This document shows, piece after piece, positions 2,202 to 13,569 of a DNA stretch of 64,000 nucleotides. Source of the DNA: Deltaproteobacteria bacterium (lineage in GTDB: Bacteria; CALINM01); contig JBBIPZ010000001.1 of NCBI GenBank assembly GCA_037442505.1, positions 121,144 to 185,143 on the forward strand. Direction: 5' to 3'. The notes under the pieces are model-generated. The model was given only the letters and a program-made list of their open reading frames with translations, ran no database searches and had not been told where the DNA came from. Each line of letters opens with the position of its first letter. Within the stretch, counting starts at the first letter, position 1. The translations under genes and the position numbers were made by a program.

Positions 2202-2279
2202 CGCAAATTTTCTTAATTGTTAATAATAGCCAAAAATGATACATTAATAGTTTACGATTTTTTATGCTGGAGGCAGTTT

Positions 2280-3542
2280 ATGGACAAATTTATCATAAAG
2301 GGTGGATACAGACTTACAGGTGAAGTGATGATTAGTGGTGCTAAAAATTCAGCTTTACCACTAATGGCGGCAACGCTTCTTACAAAAGATGTCTGCAAAC
2401 TTAAAGATATTCCTTTGCTTCAAGATATTAACACAATGCAAAAGTTGATGTGTACCTTGGGTTGTGAAATTAGTAGAGACAGCAGGGGAATTTTGCATCT
2501 TAATTCTGAAAAATTAGATAATTTTGAAGCACCGTATGACCTTGTAAGAACGATGAGGGCTTCTGTGCTTGTGTTAGGGCCTCTTGTTTCAAGATTAGGA
2601 AAGGCAAGAATATCTCTGCCGGGTGGTTGTGCCATAGGAGATAGACCTATCAATTTACATATTGACGCATTGAGAAAGATGGGGGCAAAAGTTGAACAGT
2701 CTCATGGTTATGTTACCGCTTCTGCAAAGAGATTGAAAGGCAGCAAGATTTATTTTGACATTCCAACAGTTACAGGGACAGAAAACGTTATTATGGCTGC
2801 TACCCTTGCAAAAGGTGAGACAATAATAGAAAATGCTGCTAAGGAACCAGAAATTGTCGATTTAGTAAACTTTTTAAGAAAGATGGGAGCAAAGATTGAT
2901 GGAGAAGGCACTCCAGTTATCCGTATAGAAGGAGTGGATGAGCTTAAGGGGGCAGAGCACACGGTTATTCCAGACAGGATAGAGGCGGGAAGTTTTATGA
3001 TTGCGGCAGCTGCAACTGCTGGTAACGTTCTTGTGAAAAACTGTGTTATTGAACATTTAGAAGCTCTTGAGCAAAAGCTTATAGAAGCAGGTGCAAATGT
3101 GGTAAGAGAAAAGGATGGAGTCAGGGTCGTTGGAAAAAGAGATATTAAGAGTGTTGATATTACTACGATGCCTTACCCAGGTTTTCCCACTGACTTACAG
3201 GCGCAGTTTATGGCGTTTATGTGTACTGCAAAAGGTTTGTCTGTTATCAGGGAAACCATTTTCGAAAATCGTTTTATCCATGTTAGTGAATTGAAAAGAA
3301 TGGGTGCAAACATAACAATAAAAGATAGAAATGCCATTGTAAAAGGTGTTCCAGAACTTACAGGAGCACCAGTTATGGTCTCTGATTTAAGGGCTGGAGC
3401 AGCACTTGTTATAGCTGGACTTATGGCTTGCGGAGAAACAGAAGTATTAAGGATATACCATCTTGACAGAGGATACGAATCGATGGAAAAGAAACTCGCA
3501 AAATTGGGGGCAAAAATAAAAAGGACAAAGGAAAAGAATTAG
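2280..3542 (+). CDS. murA: UDP-N-acetylglucosamine 1-carboxyvinyltransferase
   Basis: Begins MDKFIIKGGYRLTGEV-ISGAKNSALPLMAA, the canonical MurA N-terminus. The internal start at 2280 is preceded by GGAGGCAG. The length of ~420 aa fits. Confidence 0.93.
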   Translation: MDKFIIKGGYRLTGEVMISGAKNSALPLMAATLLTKDVCKLKDIPLLQDINTMQKLMCTLGCEISRDSRGILHLNSEKLDNFEAPYDLVRTMRASVLVLGPLVSRLGKARISLPGGCAIGDRPINLHIDALRKMGAKVEQSHGYVTASAKRLKGSKIYFDIPTVTGTENVIMAATLAKGETIIENAAKEPEIVDLVNFLRKMGAKIDGEGTPVIRIEGVDELKGAEHTVIPDRIEAGSFMIAAAATAGNVLVKNCVIEHLEALEQKLIEAGANVVREKDGVRVVGKRDIKSVDITTMPYPGFPTDLQAQFMAFMCTAKGLSVIRETIFENRFIHVSELKRMGANITIKDRNAIVKGVPELTGAPVMVSDLRAGAALVIAGLMACGETEVLRIYHLDRGYESMEKKLAKLGAKIKRTKEKN

Positions 3543-3544
3543 TC

Positions 3545-4174
3545 ATGGTCACCATTGCTTTATCTAAGGGGCGCATCTTAAAAGAAGAAGTTGCCCTGTT
3601 TAAAGATGCAAAAATTGATATTTCAGATGTGCTAAAGGATGACAGAAGACTATTATTTACTTTCACCGAGCTAAATATAAACGTTATGTTATTAAAGCCT
3701 TTTGATGTTTGCGTATATGTAGAAAAGGGGGCTGCAGATCTCGGCATAGTAGGCAGAGATGTTATCCTTGAAGAAAACCGTGAAGTTTTTTCGTTGCTTG
3801 ATCTGGGTATCGGTAAATGTCGTATTAGCATAGCTAAGCCGAAGAAAAGTTTACAGTTTGTTGAGGGTAAATTAAGGGTGGGAACAAAGTTTCCGGAAAT
3901 AACTAAAAATTATTACGAAACTAAAGGCATGAATGTTGATATTATTAAACTGTATGGTTCTATTGAGCTTGCTCCGCTAACAGGTATTACGGACTGTATA
4001 GTTGATATTGTTTCGAGCGGGGAGACCCTTAGAAAAAATGGCTTGGAAGAAGTAGAAAAAATTTGTGACATTTCGAGCTATCTTATCGCAAACAGAACTT
4101 CTTTTAAAACGAAATTTAATGAGGTCAAACGGATTATACAGGGCTTACAAAAAGTCACGGGAGGCTTCTCATGA
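3545..4174 (+). CDS. hisG: ATP phosphoribosyltransferase (short form)
   Basis: MVTIALSKGRILKEE... is a HisG-S-like N-terminus. It sits at the head of a his operon, at ~209 aa. Confidence 0.88.
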   Translation: MVTIALSKGRILKEEVALFKDAKIDISDVLKDDRRLLFTFTELNINVMLLKPFDVCVYVEKGAADLGIVGRDVILEENREVFSLLDLGIGKCRISIAKPKKSLQFVEGKLRVGTKFPEITKNYYETKGMNVDIIKLYGSIELAPLTGITDCIVDIVSSGETLRKNGLEEVEKICDISSYLIANRTSFKTKFNEVKRIIQGLQKVTGGFS

Positions 4175-5472
4175 AGATTATAAAATATGGGACAGAGGAG
4201 GCTTCAAGTTTTATAAGATGCCTGTTAAACAGATTGGCTTTCGATACACCGCAGGAGACAACTGTAAAATCAATTATATCAGATGTCAGGGAAAAGGGTG
4301 ACGCTGCTATTCGGCATTACTTGGATAAATTTGACAAGATTAACTTGGCGCCCAAAAACTTCGTCTTAACAGATAAAGAATGGAAAGAGGGTGCAAACAG
4401 ATGCAGCAATGAAGTTAAAAAGATAATCGACATAACAGCTGAAAGGCTGGAAGAGTTTTATCAGCGCACAACTTACAACTCATGGTTTTATTACGATAAA
4501 TACAAAAATCTGCTCGGGAACAGGTTTTTACCCTTAAGCAGAGTACTTGTTTATGCCCCGGGTGGAAAGGCAACTTATCCATCTTCTGTTTTGATGGGTG
4601 CAGTACCGGCAAAAATTGCAGGTGTTGAAGAGGTTATTTTAACAACGCCTGAGAGACAGGATGGCATTTCACCTGCTGTTTTATATGCAGCTTTAAGGGC
4701 AGGTGTGAAAAAGGTTTATAGATTGGGTGGTGCACAGGCCATAGCTGGTTTTTCTTTTGGAACAGAGACACTGCCAAAGGTTGATAAGATCGTTGGTCCG
4801 GGCAATATTTTTGTCGCTACAGCAAAAAAACTACTTTATGGCGTGGTAGATATTGATATGGTTGCTGGTCCAAGTGAAGTACTTGTGATTTTTGATGGTT
4901 CTGCATCACTTGATTATGTTGCGTTTGATATGTTGTCGCAATTAGAACACGATGAACAGGCGGTAGCTCTCGCAGTAACAAACGATAACGCTTTGGCAAC
5001 AAAGCTACAACAAATACTTGAAAAAAATGCTAAAAAAGCTAAAAGGTCAAAAATAATAGAAAAATCACTTGAAAATGCTGCGATTATTGTTGTTGACAAT
5101 ATTCTGACTGCTGTAGAAGTGGCAAACTCAGTAGCACCAGAACATCTGGAAATTATGACAGAACGCCCCATGGAACTTTTACCTTATATAAAAAATGCTG
5201 GGGCTGTTTTCCTTGGGAGTCAAACACCAGAGGCGGTTGGTGATTATATAGCAGGTCCAAATCATGTTTTGCCTACCGGTGGAACGGCAAGATTCTTTTC
5301 GCCATTGGGCGTTGAAAGCTTTTTAAGAAGGATGAGCATAATATCATTTAGCGAGAAAGGTTTGCAAGCCTTAGGCGGATATGTTGCCAGCTTTGCAGAT
5401 GAAGAAGGGCTTTTTGCTCACGGCGATTCTGTCAGAATGAGATTGAGAAAAGGAGGAAAGTTTGAGGATTAG
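4171..5472 (+). CDS. hisD: Histidinol dehydrogenase
   Basis: 433 aa with HisD-typical motifs (GGAQAIAG, VDKIVGPGNIFVATAK, AGPSEVLVI). It overlaps the hisG stop. Confidence 0.92.
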   Translation: MKIIKYGTEEASSFIRCLLNRLAFDTPQETTVKSIISDVREKGDAAIRHYLDKFDKINLAPKNFVLTDKEWKEGANRCSNEVKKIIDITAERLEEFYQRTTYNSWFYYDKYKNLLGNRFLPLSRVLVYAPGGKATYPSSVLMGAVPAKIAGVEEVILTTPERQDGISPAVLYAALRAGVKKVYRLGGAQAIAGFSFGTETLPKVDKIVGPGNIFVATAKKLLYGVVDIDMVAGPSEVLVIFDGSASLDYVAFDMLSQLEHDEQAVALAVTNDNALATKLQQILEKNAKKAKRSKIIEKSLENAAIIVVDNILTAVEVANSVAPEHLEIMTERPMELLPYIKNAGAVFLGSQTPEAVGDYIAGPNHVLPTGGTARFFSPLGVESFLRRMSIISFSEKGLQALGGYVASFADEEGLFAHGDSVRMRLRKGGKFED

Positions 5473-6517
5473 AGAAGAAGTTTTATCACTAAAGCCATAC
5501 TTTATTGATGAAAAACAGGTAAAATTTAAACTTGATGCAAATGAGAGTCCTTTTGACCTTTCAGAAGAAGACAAGAAGGCGTTGCTGGAAGAACTTGCAA
5601 CAATACATACAAACCGCTATCCCGATCCTTCAATCAAAATTATAAAAAACTTGATAGCTGAAAGAGAATGTGTTTCTAATAACGAGATAGTTTTTGGCAA
5701 CGGTTCAGACGAACTGATATATATGCTTTTAATGTGTCTAAAAGACAGGGCGAAAGTTATGTTTCCTCAGCCGGGATTTGCTATGTATAGTATTGGTGCG
5801 AAAATATTTGGAAAGCAATTAATTCCATACAATCTTGTGCCGCCTTATTATATGGTTAATGAAGAAGAGTTTTTAAATCTATTAAGCACAGAAAATCCCG
5901 ATCTTGTGTTTGTTGCCAATCCAAATAATCCAACAGGCAATATATTCCCTCCAGATTTATTAGTCGAGACGATGAAGGCTCACGAAGACACAATTTTCGT
6001 CTCTGATGAGGCGTATTATGATTACGCTCAGTCTTCCATGATTTCTAATCTTTGCAATCATAAAAATTTATTAGTTATGAGGAGTTTTTCAAAGATAGGA
6101 TTTGCGAGTATAAGGCTTGGCTATCTTTTAGGAAAAGAACCGCTTATAGAGGCTGTGTCAAAGGTAAGACTTCCTTACAACATTAATAGCTATACTCAAA
6201 AAGTGGCGGAGTTTTTCCTTAAAAGAAATGACTTAGTAAAAAAACAAATTTCTGATATAATAGATGAACGAGAGAGAATTTTTAATGTTTTGACGGGGTT
6301 CAATATCTTTACACTTCCTTCTAAGGCAAACTTTCTGACCTTTAAAGTTGAAAAAAGTGGATTTTACAATTTTTTGCTTGATAATGGGGTGTTAATAAAG
6401 GATTTGTTTCATTCTTTTGGTATGAAAAACTTTTACAGAATGACTATCGGTAGAAAGGAAGAAAATAGCTTTTTTATTAAGCTTCTTACAAATTTTATTG
6501 AAGGGGCTGAGTTATGA
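5462..6517 (+). CDS. hisC: Histidinol-phosphate aminotransferase
   Basis: Class II aminotransferase features (YPDP, NPNNPTG, SFSKIG with PLP-lysine context). Operon position fits. Confidence 0.88.
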   Translation: MRIREEVLSLKPYFIDEKQVKFKLDANESPFDLSEEDKKALLEELATIHTNRYPDPSIKIIKNLIAERECVSNNEIVFGNGSDELIYMLLMCLKDRAKVMFPQPGFAMYSIGAKIFGKQLIPYNLVPPYYMVNEEEFLNLLSTENPDLVFVANPNNPTGNIFPPDLLVETMKAHEDTIFVSDEAYYDYAQSSMISNLCNHKNLLVMRSFSKIGFASIRLGYLLGKEPLIEAVSKVRLPYNINSYTQKVAEFFLKRNDLVKKQISDIIDERERIFNVLTGFNIFTLPSKANFLTFKVEKSGFYNFLLDNGVLIKDLFHSFGMKNFYRMTIGRKEENSFFIKLLTNFIEGAEL

Positions 6518-7092
6518 TTGCTGAAATAAAACGTAAAACCAACGAAACAGATATAGCTGTTAAATTAGAGCTTAGAGGCAAAGGCAGTTCAAAGGTTGAA
6601 ACGGGCATTCCATTTTTCGATCATATGCTTACACTCTTTGCTAAACACGGTTTTTTTAATTTAAAGATATCTGCCAGAGGCGACATTGATATTGATTTCC
6701 ACCATACGGTTGAGGATGTAGGTATTGCTCTGGGAATGGCATTTAAAAAGGCGTTAGGAGACGTAAAGAACATAAAGCGTTACGGTTTTTTTGCTGTTCC
6801 TATGGACGAAGCGTTTGCTGAGGCAGCTGTTGATATTTGTGGGCGTTCAAACTTTATATACAACGTTGAACTAAAAAAAGGGAAGGTGGGAGAGTTTGAT
6901 ACTGAGCTTGCCGAAGCCTTTTTTAAAGGTTTTGTTGACCAGAGTTTCATAACTTTGCACCTGTCTTTGAGATACGGTAAAAATATGCATCATTGTATAG
7001 AAGCAATATTTAAAGCCTTTGCGAGGGCTTTATCAATGGCAGTAGAAGAAGAAAAAAGATATGATATTCCTTCCACAAAAGGGGTTATATGA
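6514..7092 (+). CDS. hisB: Imidazoleglycerol-phosphate dehydratase
   Basis: 192 aa. ETDI-V-L-L-G, FFDHML, HH-VED-GIALG and HHCIEA-FKA motifs are typical of IGPD. Confidence 0.92.
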   Translation: MIAEIKRKTNETDIAVKLELRGKGSSKVETGIPFFDHMLTLFAKHGFFNLKISARGDIDIDFHHTVEDVGIALGMAFKKALGDVKNIKRYGFFAVPMDEAFAEAAVDICGRSNFIYNVELKKGKVGEFDTELAEAFFKGFVDQSFITLHLSLRYGKNMHHCIEAIFKAFARALSMAVEEEKRYDIPSTKGVI

Positions 7093-7727
7093 TAGCCATT
7101 GTAGATTATGGAATGGGAAATCTGGAAAGTGTTAGCAAAGCACTTAAACATCTGGGATTTGATGTTATTGTTACATCAAAGGTTGAAGATATTAAATCAT
7201 CTGATGGTGTCATCCTGCCTGGGGTAGGTGCATTTCCCGACTGTATGGTAAATTTGGGAAAACTTGGATTAGTTGAAATTGTTAAAGATTCTGCTCTAAA
7301 TAAGCCTTTTTTAGGAATCTGCCTTGGACTTCAGTTACTTTTCGAAGAAAGTGAGGAGTTTGGCAGGCATGAGGGATTGTCGATTTTTAAAGGCAGGGTA
7401 AAGAGGTTTAGAGATAATATGATGGTTGAAGGAGAGAGGCTAAAAATACCCCATATGGGATGGAATAGCATTAAAATTAAAAAGACTACACCATTTCTTG
7501 ACGGCATAAATGATGGAAGTTATTTCTATTTTGTTCATTCGTATTATGTTGAAACAGATGATAGTTTGGTTGCGACGGAAACGTTTTATGGTGTAAACTT
7601 TGCTTCTTCGATAGCTAAAGATAAACTGTTTGCCTGTCAATTTCATCCCGAAAAGAGCCAGAGACTGGGGTTAAAACTGCTTGAAAATTTTGGATTAATT
7701 ACGAAAGGTGAAAAAAGATGCGACTAA
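7089..7727 (+). CDS. hisH: Imidazole glycerol phosphate synthase, glutamine amidotransferase subunit
   Basis: MIAIVDYGMGNL-SV start. GICLGLQLL contains the catalytic Cys. FHPEKS is near the C-terminus. Confidence 0.92.
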   Translation: MIAIVDYGMGNLESVSKALKHLGFDVIVTSKVEDIKSSDGVILPGVGAFPDCMVNLGKLGLVEIVKDSALNKPFLGICLGLQLLFEESEEFGRHEGLSIFKGRVKRFRDNMMVEGERLKIPHMGWNSIKIKKTTPFLDGINDGSYFYFVHSYYVETDDSLVATETFYGVNFASSIAKDKLFACQFHPEKSQRLGLKLLENFGLITKGEKRCD

Positions 7728-8374
7728 GGTTTTTGATATTGACGATTTTTTTCAGCTTACTGGTTTCGTGCTTCTCTGCAAGTTATGATTTAGAAGAAAA
7801 GTTGGTTTGTCCTGCATTACCTCCAATCAAAAGGGTTGCGGTGATGCCTTTTTTCGTGCCTACAGGTGAGGAAATGGGCGTAGTTAAGGAGGGGAAGATT
7901 GACGGTATGGCTGCAGAAAAATTAGCTACATTTACTGAGAATAAACTTAAAGATTTTGGTTGTTTTGAAGTACTTTCCTGGGAAGAGGTGCTTTCCATTT
8001 TTCAAATGGATGATAAAGACAACCTGTTTCTAATAGACAGAAAGGATATGAAAAGTTTTGTTATAAATGCGGGGAAAAAAACAAATGCTGACGCTGTTCT
8101 TATTGGCTATGTCACAAAGTATTCAGAAAGAATAGGTGAAAAATATGGAGTTTCGAAGCCTGCTTCCGTTGGATTTGTGATGTTTTTGTTTTCGTCAAAA
8201 GATGGTTCGATTTTATGGACAGGCGCTTATAGGGAAACGCAAAGCGCCCTATCCGATAATCTTTTAAACATTAAGTTGTTTATGAAAAGGGGAATGAAGT
8301 GGCTAACGGCAGATGAAATTGCAAAATGGGGCGTTTCTGAAGTCCTTAAAAATTTTCCTGGACGTGTAAAATGA
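7718..8374 (+). CDS. Lipoprotein of unknown function embedded in the his operon
   Basis: Signal peptide plus lipobox (LLVSC). It contains a KRVAVMPF motif. It overlaps the hisH stop and the hisA start, so it is translationally coupled on both sides. Confidence 0.6.
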   Translation: MRLRFLILTIFFSLLVSCFSASYDLEEKLVCPALPPIKRVAVMPFFVPTGEEMGVVKEGKIDGMAAEKLATFTENKLKDFGCFEVLSWEEVLSIFQMDDKDNLFLIDRKDMKSFVINAGKKTNADAVLIGYVTKYSERIGEKYGVSKPASVGFVMFLFSSKDGSILWTGAYRETQSALSDNLLNIKLFMKRGMKWLTADEIAKWGVSEVLKNFPGRVK

Positions 8375-9090
8375 TAGTGATACCAGCGATAGATCTGTTA
8401 AATGGCAAATGTGTAAGGCTAAAACAGGGTAGCTATGATGATGTTACAGTTTATTCTGACAATCCCATTGATTTTGCAAAGAAGTTTGAAGACGATGGCG
8501 CCCGGCTCATACACATTGTTGATCTTAATGGTGCAAAAGACGGTTCGCCCGTTAACTTTAAGGTGATTGAAAAACTTGCAAGTTCTGTTGCTGTGCCGTT
8601 AGAAATAGGTGGCGGCATTAGAGATGTCCAGACAGCCAGAAGATATTTTAATGCTGGCGTAAAGAGAATAATTATCGGAACGAAGGCTTGCGAATCACCT
8701 AACTTCATCAGAGAACTCAAGAACAATGTTGAAGCTGAAATCGTGGCAGGAATAGATGCTAAAAACGGGAAGGTAGCGGTAAAAGGCTGGGTAGAAGTTA
8801 CAGGTATCGATGCAAAAGAGTTGGCCATTTCAGTAGAAAAACAGGGTGCAGTTGCTATTATTTACACGGATATTGCAAAAGATGGAATGAGAACTGGCCC
8901 AAACATTGAGGCAACTCTGGAAATAATTGATACTGTGAATATACCGGTTATTGCCTCTGGTGGTGTTTCTAACGAATCAGATATTTATGAGCTTGCAAAG
9001 CACCCTGTCTGGGGTGTGATTGTAGGTAAGGCGATTTACGAGGGCAACATTAATCTGAGAAATGTAATAAAAAGACTTGGTGAGGTATAG
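8371..9090 (+). CDS. hisA: 1-(5-phosphoribosyl)-5-[(5-phosphoribosylamino)methylideneamino]imidazole-4-carboxamide isomerase
   Basis: [17 protein letters not shown] start. [14 protein letters not shown] and ASGGVS motifs. Confidence 0.92.
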
Positions 9091-9091
9091 T

Positions 9092-9859
9092 TTGGTTACT
9101 AAGCGCATTATACCGTGTCTTGATGTCAAGGCAGGGCGGGTAGTTAAGGGAGTTAATTTTGTTCAGCTGGTTGATGCTGGAGATCCAGTGGAGGCAGCAT
9201 ACGCATATGATAAAGCCGGTGCAGATGAACTTGTTTTTCTTGATATTACTGCATCATACGAGAACAGAGATATAATCATCGATGTTGTGAAAAAGACCGC
9301 TGCAAGGGCGTTTATGCCTCTTACTGTAGGTGGTGGTGTTAGAACGATTGATGACGTAAAAAGACTTTTGAAGGCAGGGGCAGATAAGGTTTCTATCAAT
9401 ACGGCTGCAGTAAAACAGCCAGAATTTGTAAAAGAATCTGCAAAGATTTTCGGAAGTCAATGTATAGTGGTTGCTATAGATGCAAAAAGAAAGATAAAAG
9501 ATAGCAAGCTAACTTTTGAAGTATATACACATGGAGGAAGGAACGAGACTGGAATTGATGCAGTTTTATGGGCAAAAAGGATGGAGTCTTATGGTGCAGG
9601 AGAAATTTTGTTAACCAGCATGGATAAAGACGGCACAAAAGAAGGTTATGATCTGGAGCTTACAAGGGTTATATCTGAAAATGTGGGAATTCCTGTCATT
9701 GCTTCTGGAGGTGCTGGAAGGCTGGAACATTTTTATGATGCTATTAATGAGGGTAAAGCCGATGCGGTCCTTGCTGCGTCACTTTTTCATTTTGGCATCA
9801 TAACGATTGATGAGGTAAAAAAATACCTTTTAAGTAAAGGTGTAGGGGTAAGGATATGA
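9092..9859 (+). CDS. hisF: Imidazole glycerol phosphate synthase cyclase subunit
   Basis: [30 protein letters not shown] and ASGGAG motifs. The ORF track starts at TTG 9077. TTG 9092 (giving [12 protein letters not shown]) follows the hisA stop and a GGTGAGG RBS and is the more likely start. Confidence 0.9.
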
Positions 9860-10170
9860 TACTGAAAGATCTGGAAAATATTATAAGGGAACGAATAGAA
9901 AATGCTTCGCCAGAAGAGTCTTATGTTGCACAACTTCACAAAAAGGGGGTAGAAAAGATACTAAAAAAAATTTTTGAAGAAGGATTGGAGCTTGCTCTGG
10001 CTGTTAGAGAAAAAAATAATAAAGCAGTTATATACGAAGCAGCCGATCTAATCTTTCACATCATGGTATTGCTTGGAGAGGAACAGGTTGAAATTGAAGA
10101 TATATTTAGTGAGCTTGAACGAAGATTTGGAAAATCAGGTATTGAAGAAAAAAAACAAAGAAAAAACTAA
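9856..10170 (+). CDS. hisE: Phosphoribosyl-ATP pyrophosphatase (HisE domain only)
   Basis: 104 aa with the typical HisE motif SY-A-L---G--KI-KK--EE--E and E-ADL-FH-MVLL. There is no HisI cyclohydrolase domain. Confidence 0.85.
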
Positions 10171-10181
10171 AGGAGAGTTTT

Positions 10182-10679
10182 ATGAAAGTAGGAGAAAGAA
10201 CAGTTGTAACAATGGACTATGAGTTAAGATATCCCGACGGAGAACTTATAGAATCCAGTATTGAAGCAAATCAGCCATTGGTTTTTGTTTATGGCAGGGG
10301 AGAGGTTTTACCAGCTATCGAGAAGGCGATTCTGGATAAAGAGGTTGGCGATCAGGTTAATGTAAAGCTATCCCCGGAAGAAGCTTATGGCAAGTGGGAA
10401 GAAGAAGGAATGGCAAGCATTCCCAAAAGCCAATTTCCTGTTGACATGGATATTGAAGAAGGAATGATGTTTATGATGGAGTCTGATAATGGCACACCTC
10501 AACCATTTACTGTTGTCAAGTTAGAGGGTGATGATGTAGTTGTTGATTTTAACCATCCGCTGGCAGGTCAGGAACTTGTTTTCGATTTATACATAAGGGA
10601 TGTTAGAGAAGCTACACTTGAAGAACTTGTTAAAACCGCACCTTCGTGTGGACCGGGTTGCGATAAAGGTTGTTGTTAA
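10182..10679 (+). CDS. slyD: FKBP-type peptidyl-prolyl cis-trans isomerase, SlyD-like with Cys-rich metal-binding tail
   Basis: FKBP motif (LVFVYGRGEVLPAIE...), an IF-domain insertion, and a C-terminal CGPGCDKGCC tail. Confidence 0.85.
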   Translation: MKVGERTVVTMDYELRYPDGELIESSIEANQPLVFVYGRGEVLPAIEKAILDKEVGDQVNVKLSPEEAYGKWEEEGMASIPKSQFPVDMDIEEGMMFMMESDNGTPQPFTVVKLEGDDVVVDFNHPLAGQELVFDLYIRDVREATLEELVKTAPSCGPGCDKGCC

Positions 10680-10690
10680 ATTAGCAGATT

Positions 10691-11101
10691 ATGCGTAAAA
10701 TTTTGGTTTCTAAATATATGTCTCGATGCATGGGCTGTTTATCGTGTATGTTTGCCTGTGCAAGAAGGGTAAGAGGCAGCGTAAATATTCTAAAATCAGC
10801 AATAAGAATAAGGACAAAGGGTGGCTTTTCAAGTGGCGCAATGACATCGACGCATTGTGTAGGTTGTGATGAGCCCCCATGCATTGCTTCTTGCCCTAAA
10901 GGGGCATTACAGAAACGAGAGTACGGTGGCATAAAGCTAAATAAAGAGTTATGTGATAGTTGTAAAAACTGTCTTTCTGGATGTCCATTAGATGCGATTT
11001 TTTGGGACGATGAACAAAAGTTGCCCATTTTTTGTATTCATTGTGGCAACTGTGTTAAGTTTTGCCCGCATAATTGTTTGGTGATTGAAGAGATGAAATG
11101 A
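10691..11101 (+). CDS. 4Fe-4S ferredoxin-domain protein, likely electron-transfer partner of the downstream AOR
   Basis: Several Cys clusters: CMGCLSCMFAC, CVGCDEPPCIASCP, CDSCKNCLSGCP and CIHCGNCVKFCP. It overlaps the start of the AOR gene. Confidence 0.8.
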   Translation: MRKILVSKYMSRCMGCLSCMFACARRVRGSVNILKSAIRIRTKGGFSSGAMTSTHCVGCDEPPCIASCPKGALQKREYGGIKLNKELCDSCKNCLSGCPLDAIFWDDEQKLPIFCIHCGNCVKFCPHNCLVIEEMK

Positions 11102-12843
11102 GAGTACTGTATATAAATCTAACAGAAGCTACGTCAGTTTTAAAAAACAGAGAAGATTTAAAAAGTTATCTTGGTGGTACCGGGCTTGCATCAGCTTTGA
11201 TGCTTGAACAGGTTGTTATTAATAAGCCTCCTCTCTCTGAAGAACAACCGATTGTGATAGCAAAAGGTTTCTTAACGCCTTATTTTCCAGTTGCTACAAA
11301 GAGTGTAGCGGTATTCTATTCTCCATTGACAAAAAGTCTTGGTGAAAGCCATGCTGGTGGAAGACTTGCCCTTGCTATGAGCCTTGCGGGAATTGATGCC
11401 ATAGTTGTTAGCGGTAAGAGCGAAAAACCTGTTTATCTTGTGATAAAAGACGATACTGTTGTTTTTAAGAATGCTACGCATCTTAAAGGCATGTATGCTA
11501 CTGCTACCGCTACATATATAAGAGAAAAAGAGAAAGATGCCGGTCTGAGGAGTATATTAAGGATTGGCCCTGCGGGAGAAGAACAAACGGCATTTTCTAT
11601 GGTAGTTGTGGATACATACCGACATTTCGGCAGATTGGGTTTGGGTGCCCTGTTCGGGTCGAAAAACCTTAAAGCAATTTTGATTTCTGGAACAGGCAAA
11701 GGATACAAACAGTTTCCACAAGAGAGTGGTTATAAAAATTTTTTTGAAGAGCTTCATCAAAAAACAACATCACAAATGATGAGAAAGTATCATGAATACG
11801 GTACGGCTTTAAATGTTCTCCCACTAAATGAGATGGGAGGACTTCCTACAGAGAATCTAAAAAAAACTAATTTTGACTATGCAGAGGATATCTCCGGAGA
11901 AACGTTTGCTGAAAATGTATTGACGCGAAAATTTGCCTGTTCAGGTTGCCCTGTTGGTTGTATTCATATAGCAACAATCAGACGCAAATTTGCCCCAGAG
12001 CAGGAGTGGGAGAGAATAGATGTTTCTTATGATTACGAGTTGATTTATTCATTAGGTGCTTTGCTGGGAATCAGGGACTGCTATGGTGTCCTGTCGTTGA
12101 TAGAAAAGGTAGAAGAGCTTGGTATTGATGCCATTTATGCTGGAGTTTTACTTGCGTGGCTGACTGAAGCTTATGAAAAAAAAGTTATCAGTAATCACGA
12201 ACTGGAGGGAATAAAGCCGGAATTTGGCAATGCCGATATTTACTGTACTTTATTAGAAAAGATAACTTATTCAGAAAATAGCTTTTATCAAACTGCAAGG
12301 TCTGGGCTGACAGCTTTATGTGATTTATACGGTGGACATGACTTCGCACTACTTGTTAACAAAAATGCGATGGCGGGTTATCATACAGGGTATGCAAACC
12401 TTCTGGGACAGCATTTAGTTGGTATTAGAAACGCCCATACTGATAATGCCGGTTACGCCATAGATCAGGAGAATATCAGTTACACACCTATGGAACTAAT
12501 CGACAAACTGTATGAAGAAGAGGTGTTCAGGTCATTTTTCAACTGCACTGGACTTTGTCTTTTTGTCAGAAAAATATATGATTTCGATACGTTACTTAAG
12601 GCTTCAAATCTGGTAGGTGTCAATCTCACAGAAAAGGATATTTTTGAAATAGGCGAAAAGATTTATTTGAAAAAGCTAATTTTTAAGCTAAAATGTGGGT
12701 TTAGTATTGATGACTACAAAATTCCTGTGCGTTTTTTTGAAACGACGGCAGGAAGAAAAAGGCTGTCTGAAGATTTTGTTAATAAGGCTAAAGATTACTT
12801 TGCTCAAAAGATAAAAGACAAAGTTAGCAAAGGTGAACTATAA
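11098..12843 (+). CDS. Aldehyde:ferredoxin oxidoreductase family protein (tungsten-containing AOR)
   Basis: 581 aa. The N-terminus is the AOR type (inference from family knowledge). Co-located with the Fd subunit. Confidence 0.8.
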   Translation: MRVLYINLTEATSVLKNREDLKSYLGGTGLASALMLEQVVINKPPLSEEQPIVIAKGFLTPYFPVATKSVAVFYSPLTKSLGESHAGGRLALAMSLAGIDAIVVSGKSEKPVYLVIKDDTVVFKNATHLKGMYATATATYIREKEKDAGLRSILRIGPAGEEQTAFSMVVVDTYRHFGRLGLGALFGSKNLKAILISGTGKGYKQFPQESGYKNFFEELHQKTTSQMMRKYHEYGTALNVLPLNEMGGLPTENLKKTNFDYAEDISGETFAENVLTRKFACSGCPVGCIHIATIRRKFAPEQEWERIDVSYDYELIYSLGALLGIRDCYGVLSLIEKVEELGIDAIYAGVLLAWLTEAYEKKVISNHELEGIKPEFGNADIYCTLLEKITYSENSFYQTARSGLTALCDLYGGHDFALLVNKNAMAGYHTGYANLLGQHLVGIRNAHTDNAGYAIDQENISYTPMELIDKLYEEEVFRSFFNCTGLCLFVRKIYDFDTLLKASNLVGVNLTEKDIFEIGEKIYLKKLIFKLKCGFSIDDYKIPVRFFETTAGRKRLSEDFVNKAKDYFAQKIKDKVSKGEL

Positions 12844-13569
12844 ATGAGTGTGCTTATTATTACACCTACTTACAACGAGATTGATAATATAAAAAAACTT
12901 ATTCCTGTTTTGCTTTCGTTAAGGGAAGATATTCATGTTCTTGTTGTAGATGACAACTCACCTGATGGAACAGGTGATTATGTAGAAAATCTTTCTAAAG
13001 AAAACAGTAGAGTATATGTTTATAAGCGTGCAGGGAAAATGGGATTGGGGAGTGCATACATAGAAGGATTTAAGTGGGCTTTAAAACATCCAATAAAGTT
13101 CGATTATATAGTCCAGATGGACGCTGACTTTAGTCATGAACCAGCAAAAATCCTCGAGTTTCTTGAACAATTAATGACATATGACGTAGTCGTTGGGTCT
13201 CGTTATCTAAATGGCGTTTCTGTCGTTAACTGGCCTATAAAAAGATTGATACTTAGTTATTTTGCAAACTGGTATGCAAGAACACTTTCTGGAATGAAAA
13301 TCAGGGACTGCACTGGGGGTTTTCGTGCATATAGAAGGGTGGTTTTAGAGAAGTTTCCTTTTGACTATGTTACTTCTGATGGTTATGCGTTTCAGATAGA
13401 GATGAATTATTACTGTCAAAAGTTAGGCTTCAGCATGACAGAAGTACCAATAATATTTGTTGATAGGCATGCAGGCACATCCAAACTCTCAAGAAAAATA
13501 GTTTATGAAGCTGTCTTTAAAGTTTTGTTTTTATTTTTTGACAGATGTTGTAATATAAAAAAGGTATGA
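12844..13569 (+). CDS. Family 2 glycosyltransferase, polyprenol-phosphate mannose/glucose synthase-like
   Basis: LIITPTYNE-DNI start, VVDDNSPDGTGD and QMDADFSHEP (DXD-like) motifs; GT2 DPM1-like. Confidence 0.82.
   Translation: MSVLIITPTYNEIDNIKKLIPVLLSLREDIHVLVVDDNSPDGTGDYVENLSKENSRVYVYKRAGKMGLGSAYIEGFKWALKHPIKFDYIVQMDADFSHEPAKILEFLEQLMTYDVVVGSRYLNGVSVVNWPIKRLILSYFANWYARTLSGMKIRDCTGGFRAYRRVVLEKFPFDYVTSDGYAFQIEMNYYCQKLGFSMTEVPIIFVDRHAGTSKLSRKIVYEAVFKVLFLFFDRCCNIKKV

Follow-up and report, generated by a model that had tools for sequence, protein, structure and literature searches.

A predicted lipoprotein gene between hisH and hisA

The DNA analysed here is a stretch of 64,000 nucleotides (nt) from a Deltaproteobacteria bacterium of the GTDB lineage CALINM01 (assembly GCA_037442505.1, contig JBBIPZ010000001.1, positions 121,144 to 185,143 of the forward strand), which we call the window and within which positions are given. 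Its plus strand carries a compact operon for histidine biosynthesis, in the midst of which lies a gene that we call X (7718-8374, plus strand, ATG to TGA, 218 amino acids), the member of an uncurated family whose product is predicted to be an exported lipoprotein with a fold of the TolB-N/PelC/LpoB/GNA1162 type. The upstream neighbor is hisH (7089-7727, plus strand), encoding the glutamine amidotransferase subunit of imidazole glycerol phosphate synthase (TIGR01855, E 1.1e-69; PF00117), and the downstream neighbor is hisA (8371-9090, plus strand; TIGR00007, E 4.8e-80; PF00977, E 1.1e-80). A first-pass annotation of this DNA had described a 218-residue reading frame between the two genes, overlapping both by 4-10 nt, and the sequence agrees: The overlap is of 10 nt with hisH (7718-7727) and of 4 nt, ATGA, with hisA (8371-8374). 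The remaining descriptive points of that annotation, a lipobox and the motif KRVAVMPF, are all present as well.

A Shine-Dalgarno-like sequence, AAAGGTGA (7704-7711, plus strand), precedes the ATG of X by 6 nt and is itself part of the 3' end of hisH. Upstream of 8371 there is no clear Shine-Dalgarno sequence belonging to hisA itself, and for this reason the translation of hisA probably depends on its coupling to X. Promoter- and terminator-like sites are as numerous along the operon as expected from shuffled sequence, and none of the internal ones stands above chance.

The N-terminus of X, MRLRFLILTIFFSLLVSC, has the makeup of a lipoprotein signal peptide (residues 1-18; 7718-7771, plus strand), in which Arg2 and Arg4 precede a hydrophobic core and the lipobox LVSC; the codon of Cys18 occupies 7769-7771. 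The lipobox context, MRLRFLILTIFFSLLVS-C18, fits the pattern [LVI][ASTVI][GAS]-C, so that X conforms to a lipoprotein rule of PROSITE type, in line with the LLVSC lipobox of the first-pass annotation. The first homology search gave 28 homologues of X, and our alignment (A1) comprises 29 family sequences, of which 21 pass the same rule, the failures being N-extended gene models or deviations of a single residue; Cys18 is conserved in at least 90% of the aligned sequences. The residue following the lipobox Cys is Phe in X, and it is Asp in none of the orthologue N-termini listed. In E. coli, a residue other than Asp after the lipid-carrying Cys directs a lipoprotein to the outer membrane. By this rule X would be anchored via Cys18, after Sec export and lipidation, so as to face the periplasm, with the outer membrane as the favored location.

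Structure prediction places the mature protein in a well-populated fold group. The AlphaFold2 model of X has a predicted local distance difference test score (pLDDT) of 79.3, falling below 50 only at residues 19-30, and the model of the orthologue from Desulfovibrio ferrophilus, with pLDDT 92.3, has the same order of elements: a signal helix (residues 2-19 in X), a short linker, a strand (VAVMPF), a helix, a short strand, two helices, four strands and two C-terminal helices. Foldseek comparison with the PDB aligns both models with GNA1162, PelC, FlgT, CT253, LpoB, the N-domain of TolB, DUF330/PqiC-like proteins and CsgG, at a probability of about 1.00 and with E values from 4e-7 to 3e-4, or up to 2e-3 for LpoB. 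For the X model the best match is GNA1162 (4hrv: E 3.6e-7, probability 1.00, TM-score to target 0.63), which reaches E 3.5e-5 with the second model, while PelC is best or near-best with both (E 1e-6 to 2e-5, the X model giving about 1e-6; TM-score to target 0.64-0.73) and LpoB gives E 4e-5 to 2e-3 over the two (X against 4q6l: E 4.3e-5, TM-score to target 0.60). As modelled, mature X has the alpha/beta fold of PelC, GNA1162, LpoB, the TolB N-domain, FlgT and CsgG. The motif KRVAVMPF (residues 38-45; 7829-7852, plus strand) corresponds to the first beta-strand of the mature domain, which spans residues 39-42 in the X model and 38-40 in that of the D. ferrophilus orthologue; its Pro44 and Phe45 do not vary among the 29 aligned sequences. 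A strand of the pattern phi-A-V-phi-P-F is indeed a mark of the fold that LpoB, CsgG, TolB-N, PelC and GNA1162 have in common. The linker from Cys18 to this strand, residues 19-37, is about 19 residues long.

At the level of sequence, the same relationships almost vanish. X has no match in Pfam, and in NCBIfam it matches LpoB alone, with 14 bits against a cut-off of 110.55 bits; the GNA1162-like (PF05643) and CsgG profiles give no match at E <= 1. The first-pass annotation, which had likened KRVAVMPF to motifs of LpoB or CsgG-type proteins, was right about the fold and wrong about the membership, since Foldseek finds these structures with both models and the profile cut-offs are not reached. 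Scanned one by one, the 29 family members produce matches below threshold to GNA1162-like (17 members), LpoB (13), DUF3280 (8) and CsgG (4). Of seven members scanned again, one his-linked protein (P0024) passes a gathering score, that of PF05643 (28.1 versus 25.9 bits), the remaining PF05643 results being 14 bits or nothing and the best for PF13036 being 17.5 versus 22.3 bits. Moreover, the PF05643 matches cover only positions 38-132 of the 185 in the profile, outside which lies the conserved C-terminal motif of the family. The family profile reaches a sole protein of the PDB, PelC (5t11), with a weak match of E 0.041 over 77 profile positions; the calbindin and Apollo matches that appeared when a single protein was searched against PDB sequences were discarded as noise.

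What defines the family is its C-terminal part. The most conserved segment, residues 173-205, ETQSALSDNLLNIKLFMKRGMKWLTADEIAKWG (8234-8332, plus strand), runs from the end of the last strand through a helix (182-190) and a loop into the first part of a further helix (198-212). Invariant within it, over the 29-sequence alignment, are T174, Q175, L178, N181, N184, G192, W195, L196, A198, D199, E200, A202 and G205, and Q175, L178 and W195 stay invariant in a wider alignment. The resulting near-invariant signature, ETQxxLSENLLNIxxFxKRGxKWLTADELAxxG, is left unexplained by the matched structures, and the segment is a candidate surface for binding a partner or the membrane. The invariant residues of the family are mostly aliphatic, Trp, Gln, Asn, Asp and Glu. 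Conserved in the X clade are two further Cys, those of 'LVCPALPP' and 'DFGCFEV'. In many members outside this clade, the loop that follows the first strand contains a pair of Cys (SCPICG, TCSVCG, CRACG, LSCPIGEIC), as seen in the X proteins of loci L017-L020, L024, L026, L032, L041 and L049-L063 (loci are designated by L and a number); the loop is absent from the X clade.

X is not an ORFan, since it has homologues in other species. Searched against 1.84 billion representatives, the family profile matches 1,713 clusters (50% identity) at E <= 1e-3 and, of these, 264 at E <= 1e-30, the source labels of family members reading "hypothetical", "lipoprotein", "putative lipoprotein" or "TolB-like". 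Among cultured bacteria the family is carried, for example, by Desulfovibrio ferrophilus, Desulfocurvibacter africanus, Desulfobaculum species and Desulfuromonas acetoxidans. The homology between the X proteins of the window's clade and those of Desulfovibrionaceae is secure, hhalign giving a probability of 99.8% and E 2.8e-28.

Comparison with the orthologue that is 80% identical (L001) yields proportions of nonsynonymous and synonymous differences (pN and pS) of 0.108 and 0.72, the pN of the his enzymes lying between 0.046 and 0.130. At the level of about 55% identity (X 55%, his proteins 52-76%), X diverges slightly faster while remaining strongly constrained. Its GC content at third codon positions (GC3, 0.342) and its codon-adaptation index against the neighbors (0.687) both fall inside the spread of the flanking genes, the sliding composition profile has no GC step around X, and the repeat search found neither flanking repeats nor remnants of mobile elements there. 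From these sequence comparisons X is, almost certainly, a real native gene under purifying selection. The first-pass annotation had considered that the reading frame might be spurious, which is countered by its being kept as coding sequence in related his operons with pN far below pS. It had also raised a selfish insertion or foreign origin and proposed to compare codon usage and GC3 with the flanking his genes: The comparison reveals no deviation, hence no sign of recent insertion, and together with the uniform GC profile, the lack of repeats and a linkage that extends down to 27% identity it speaks against this idea.

Two further features of composition deserve mention. An imperfect inverted repeat of 24 nt, 71% complementary, brackets X (7683-7706 and 8334-8357), both of its arms encoding C-terminal residues (...LENFG... 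in HisH and ...LKNFPG... in X), and it is most likely a product of chance in AT-rich DNA. The other is the lack of His residues in X and in 16 of its 24 closer homologues; HisG (3545-4174) is likewise devoid of them. The mean His content is 1.44% in the operon region and 1.35% in the long open reading frames (ORFs) of the window, 4 of 43 of which have none, and unlinked paralogues of X are only slightly richer. Given this low mean and the other His-free ORFs, we set the depletion aside as suggestive, not significant. An X and a HisG free of His could ease the translation of the coupled chain under histidine starvation.

Linkage of X with hisA and the surrounding operon

The first-pass annotation had suggested an inspection of synteny in relatives, and from this comes the principal new finding. 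We scanned one genome per species, obtaining 57 loci with family members, in which his genes were located by tblastn with the His proteins of the window. The arrangement hisH-X-hisA is kept in all close relatives examined (47-80% identity), as is, wherever the contig extends far enough, the wider neighborhood from murA to hisE followed by the genes for an FKBP-type isomerase, a ferredoxin and an aldehyde:ferredoxin oxidoreductase. In distant lineages, at 27-38% identity, X is again found directly upstream of hisA, so that at least four operon layouts share this adjacency. The first, murA-hisGDCBH-X-AFE, is that of the window's clade. The second, hisB-hisH-X-hisA-hisF, occurs in metagenome-assembled genomes (MAGs) of Desulfobacterales/Desulfobacteria, in a Nitrospirae MAG (L037) and in a MAG labelled as Spirochaetales (L050). 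The third is a bare hisB-X-hisA unit in Thermodesulfobacteriota MAGs, flanked on either side by genes of the opposite strand in the group L022-L030 and on the upstream side alone in L032 and L041; hisB-X-hisA is found also in Desulfovibrionaceae. The fourth, guaB-guaA-tatB-tatC-hisB-X-hisA-HMA, belongs to the cultured Desulfovibrio ferrophilus (AP017378; L071, 2972-6759) and Desulfocurvibacter africanus (L072, 2967-6627), in which X overlaps its neighbors by 1-4 nt and neither hisH nor hisF was found within 5 kb of the unit.

Altogether, the linked lineages are Desulfobacterales, Thermodesulfobacteriota, cultured Desulfovibrionales, a Nitrospirae MAG and unassigned metagenome contigs, in most of which the stop of X and the start of hisA overlap as ATGA or lie 0-16 nt apart. 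As a background sample we used 63 metagenome loci that were chosen by hisA and not by X (HisA only 43-51% identical) and had enough upstream sequence; hisD-hisB-hisH-X-hisA-hisF was present in four. In a rough neighbor-joining tree the his-linked copies cluster, and a separate clade consists of paralogues unlinked to his. The linkage between X and hisA is, to judge from these comparisons, old and maintained, not recent or selfish. In four loci of Desulfobacteraceae type (L032, L041, L021 and L038), X lies upstream of dnaG and of a gene for 580-586 amino acids, which we took as rpoD from its N-terminal sequence only; in L021 and L038, X is kept in this place without flanking his genes, which looks like a secondary loss of the his linkage. 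In the literature we found nothing on a hisA-linked lipoprotein in Desulfovibrio, nor on the putative D. vulgaris locus tags DVU1038 to DVU1040.

In the window, the operon runs in the order murA-hisG-hisD-hisC-hisB-hisH-X-hisA-hisF-hisE (2217-10170, plus strand), consecutive genes overlapping or lying at most 3 nt apart. Besides the three genes already described, it contains murA (2217/2277-3542, placed from the ORF list and orthologues), hisG (3545-4174, the short form of 209 amino acids), hisD (4171-5472), hisC (5462-6517), hisB (6514-7092, dehydratase only), hisF (9077-9859) and hisE (9856-10170, PRA-PH only), all on the plus strand. The his genes other than hisH and hisA were named through orthologues that are 77-93% identical and have recorded Pfam families (L001). 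The distance between the end of murA and the start of hisG is 3 nt, and this junction is kept in relatives with MurA 77-94% identical. MurA is the first committed enzyme of peptidoglycan synthesis and is cytoplasmic. The description of the operon by the first-pass annotation as otherwise purely cytoplasmic and biosynthetic consequently stands with a qualifier, because a cytoplasmic enzyme of cell-wall synthesis heads it.

Within the operon there is no hisI, hisZ or gene for a histidinol-phosphate phosphatase; these were not searched for elsewhere, the rest of the window being partly annotated. The short form of HisG requires HisZ. Following hisE (10182-13569) are genes for an FKBP-type isomerase, a 4Fe-4S ferredoxin, an aldehyde:ferredoxin oxidoreductase and a family-2 glycosyltransferase, in an order kept in relatives down to about 58% identity; the isomerase has a Cys-rich C-terminal tail, SCGPGCDKGCC, and is SlyD-like in appearance. 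No Rfam family reaches its gathering score in the whole 64 kb (no tRNA, riboswitch, T-box or his leader), so that the regulation of this operon is not evident from known RNA elements.

Away from his genes, the contexts of the family are heterogeneous and include genes for Ysc84-domain and radical SAM proteins, for Trk potassium uptake and ion channels, and for chorismate synthase. No recurrent functional partner emerges from these contexts, save for one clade that lies beside P1B-type ATPases. The paralogues inspected in the unlinked clade have a type-I signal peptide and a Cys-x5-6-Cys loop. In three loci (L055, 5778-9761; L059, 878-4171; L063, 5866-9699), a paralogue of X is followed on the same strand by the gene for an exported His-rich protein of 124 amino acids without Pfam family, an ArsR repressor (PF01022, 5e-17) and a P1B-type ATPase (E1-E2 plus HMA). 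In three others (L049, L052 and L056), the gene for a CopA-type ATPase, which has two HMA domains, is found at a distance of one or two genes from a paralogue of the same subfamily.

Explanations for a lipoprotein gene in the his operon

In evolutionary terms, this linkage creates a puzzle: How has a gene for an envelope protein stayed next to hisA through several rearrangements of the operon? The explanation that we favor, and consider probable though by no means assured, is that X is a genuine 'alien' gene anciently embedded in the his operon, encoding a periplasmic scaffold anchored in the outer membrane that has no enzymatic role in histidine synthesis. Those parts of it that are directly shown, namely the signal peptide, the fold, the gene chain, the purifying selection and the linkage, are nearly certain. 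According to this explanation, X would be exported by Sec, lipidated at Cys18 and anchored to the outer membrane on its inner face, where its function may be that of a scaffold or adaptor devoid of enzymatic activity. Perhaps forming an oligomeric ring by analogy with PelC, PqiC or CsgG, it would bind a partner via the C-terminal helix-loop-helix (ETQ...SENLLN...KWLTADELA) and take no part in the chemistry of histidine synthesis. The linkage would tie both the synthesis of X and the translation of hisA to one mRNA. The linkage could then persist in either of two ways. Removing or moving the coupled middle gene may disturb hisA, a "trap" that would arise because hisA has no clear ribosome-binding site and starts inside the stop of X; alternatively, expression in step with his and murA, that is, with growth, may be useful in itself.

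Several points weigh against this explanation. Its weak step is the absence of any functional tie to histidine, because the adjacency of X and hisA survives several operon rearrangements, including that to the bare hisB-X-hisA unit, and so exceeds what a pure passenger would predict; a real functional tie, such as the moonlighting or regulatory link raised by the first-pass annotation, may exist. The rule for sorting to the outer membrane derives from E. coli and may not hold for these lineages, and some family members have type-I instead of lipoprotein signal peptides, so that membrane anchoring is not universal across the family. Finally, the neighbor-joining tree carries no support values; hence we do not claim a single origin of the linkage, and the choice between one origin and repeated capture is unsettled.

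If the tie is indeed functional and not historical, which we consider unlikely, X would be an envelope component that needs, or is tuned by, the supply of histidine, and the best lead would be the periplasmic buffering of copper or other metals. More broadly, the whole family may serve in periplasmic handling of copper or a related metal, its linkage with his genes reflecting the role of histidine as a metal ligand or buffer and X being produced together with histidine for metal tolerance of the envelope. The paralogue clusters with the His-rich protein, ArsR and P1B-type ATPases and the copies near CopA-type ATPases point in this direction, as do the C-x2-C or C-x5-6-C loop of many relatives and the sensitivity to copper of Brucella his auxotrophs (PMC13001215). 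In Desulfovibrio ferrophilus and Desulfocurvibacter africanus, moreover, hisB-X-hisA is followed on the same strand by the gene for a 70-amino-acid HMA protein (PF00403, 5.8e-10), which we read as CopZ-like. X itself, however, has no His and only two Cys besides that for lipid attachment, the Cys loop is absent from its clade, and no metal-binding motif is conserved family-wide. In addition, the ATPase-linked copies form one clade, so that they may reflect a single event, and no metal genes were seen flanking the his operon in the window. On balance, we regard a function of the family in metal handling as unlikely, and its connection with metals as a weak lead. If true, it would amount to a conserved coupling, at the level of the operon, between an amino-acid pathway and metal homeostasis of the envelope in Desulfobacterota-type bacteria and Nitrospirota.

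It is also quite improbable, in our judgment, that X is a functional analogue of LpoB, that is, an outer-membrane regulator of a peptidoglycan synthase or another machine of envelope growth, which, being encoded in one operon with murA and the his genes, would link the growth of the wall to biosynthetic capacity. The likeness of the model to the C-terminal domain of LpoB (4q6l), the weak LpoB profile matches of 13 among 29 members and the position of murA as first gene of the operon, in the window and its clade, are all consistent with such a role. Yet the score against the LpoB equivalog model is far below its cut-off, PelC and GNA1162 are structurally closer, the linker of X is short in comparison with that of LpoB, and murA lies outside the cluster in most other lineages having X next to hisA.

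The possibility that X supplies a missing his activity, for example that of histidinol-phosphate phosphatase, is suggested by its place inside an operon that has no gene for this phosphatase, no hisI and no hisZ, and a hisB of dehydratase only. It is disfavored, to the point of being very improbable, by the conserved export signal and lipobox, which place X outside the cytoplasm, by a fold typical of non-enzymatic periplasmic scaffolds and by the lack of matches to phosphatases or other enzyme families in Pfam and NCBIfam. Lastly, a spurious ORF or a recent selfish or foreign insertion without host function, for which nothing speaks except the odd location, is refuted by pN being much lower than pS, hundreds of homologues, host-like composition without repeats or mobile remnants, and a linkage kept in distant lineages.

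Comparison with known envelope proteins and alien his-operon genes

PelC, which participates in the export of the Pel exopolysaccharide (5t0z, 5t10, 5t11, 9h80), is like X a small lipoprotein, and the two share one alpha/beta fold. Twelve subunits of PelC make up a periplasmic ring at the outer membrane (PMC12141448), and by analogy X might plausibly work in a similar manner. However, X is about 60 residues longer, has the family-specific C-terminal helix-loop-helix, which is invariant, and approaches PelC in sequence only through the marginal match of the family profile; no pel operon surrounds X or family members at the loci whose gene content was examined, the neighbors of X itself being his genes. 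GNA1162-like proteins (PF05643, formerly DUF799; 4hrv) share the fold and provide the most frequent weak Pfam match of the family, but X stays below their gathering threshold of 25.9 bits and they themselves form a family without an assigned function.

LpoB, the activator of PBP1b (TIGR02722, PF13036; 4q6l, 4q6z, 2mii), is again a lipoprotein with a globular domain of X-type fold, and it needs a long disordered linker to reach PBP1b. LpoB is not known from outside the gammaproteobacteria. X differs in lying far under the cut-off of that family, in its short linker and in its distribution among Desulfobacterota-type lineages and a Nitrospirae MAG. The outer-membrane lipoproteins of the PqiC/DUF330 type (2iqi) and CsgG belong to the same structural superfamily but give weaker matches, with TM-scores of 0.3-0.4, and neither MCE nor curli partner genes are found near X. 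CsgG forms a ring of nine subunits, located on the inner side of the outer membrane. PqiC assembles as an octameric ring at the inner face of the outer membrane (PMC10897342).

The significance of X lies on two sides. For envelope biology, it brings to light a sizeable unnamed family of exported proteins in the PelC/LpoB/TolB-N fold group, present mainly in lineages of sulfate-reducer type, and a candidate new outer-membrane scaffold that is testable in cultured relatives of Desulfovibrio. For operon evolution, it is well suited to the question whether an unrelated gene can be kept in a "trap" by translational coupling over very long periods. The current picture of histidine biosynthesis remains unchanged.

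On the latter side there are precedents. The first-pass annotation had called an envelope gene in a his operon unexpected, which is overstated, since conserved alien genes in such operons are documented: One lies between hisB and hisH in Rhodothermota (PMC8305728), while in Corynebacterium glutamicum cg2302 and cg2301 lie between the same two genes in a hisDCB-cg2302-cg2301 operon, and deletion of cg2301, which encodes a membrane permease, leaves growth in minimal medium unaffected (PMC3896937). The concept of alien genes in heterogeneous his operons has been reviewed (PMC10138114). X resembles these genes in not being a his gene, in having homologues elsewhere and in occupying a fixed place on the same strand in the hisB/hisH/hisA part of the operon. 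It differs from those of Rhodothermota and C. glutamicum in belonging to another protein family, in being coupled on both sides and in the breadth of its linkage, which spans several higher-level lineages and survives the fragmentation of the operon. Among the alien genes associated with the histidine operon it is one of the more persistent, and what is new here is the combination of an uncurated family in a known fold group with an unusually persistent example of a known alien-gene phenomenon.

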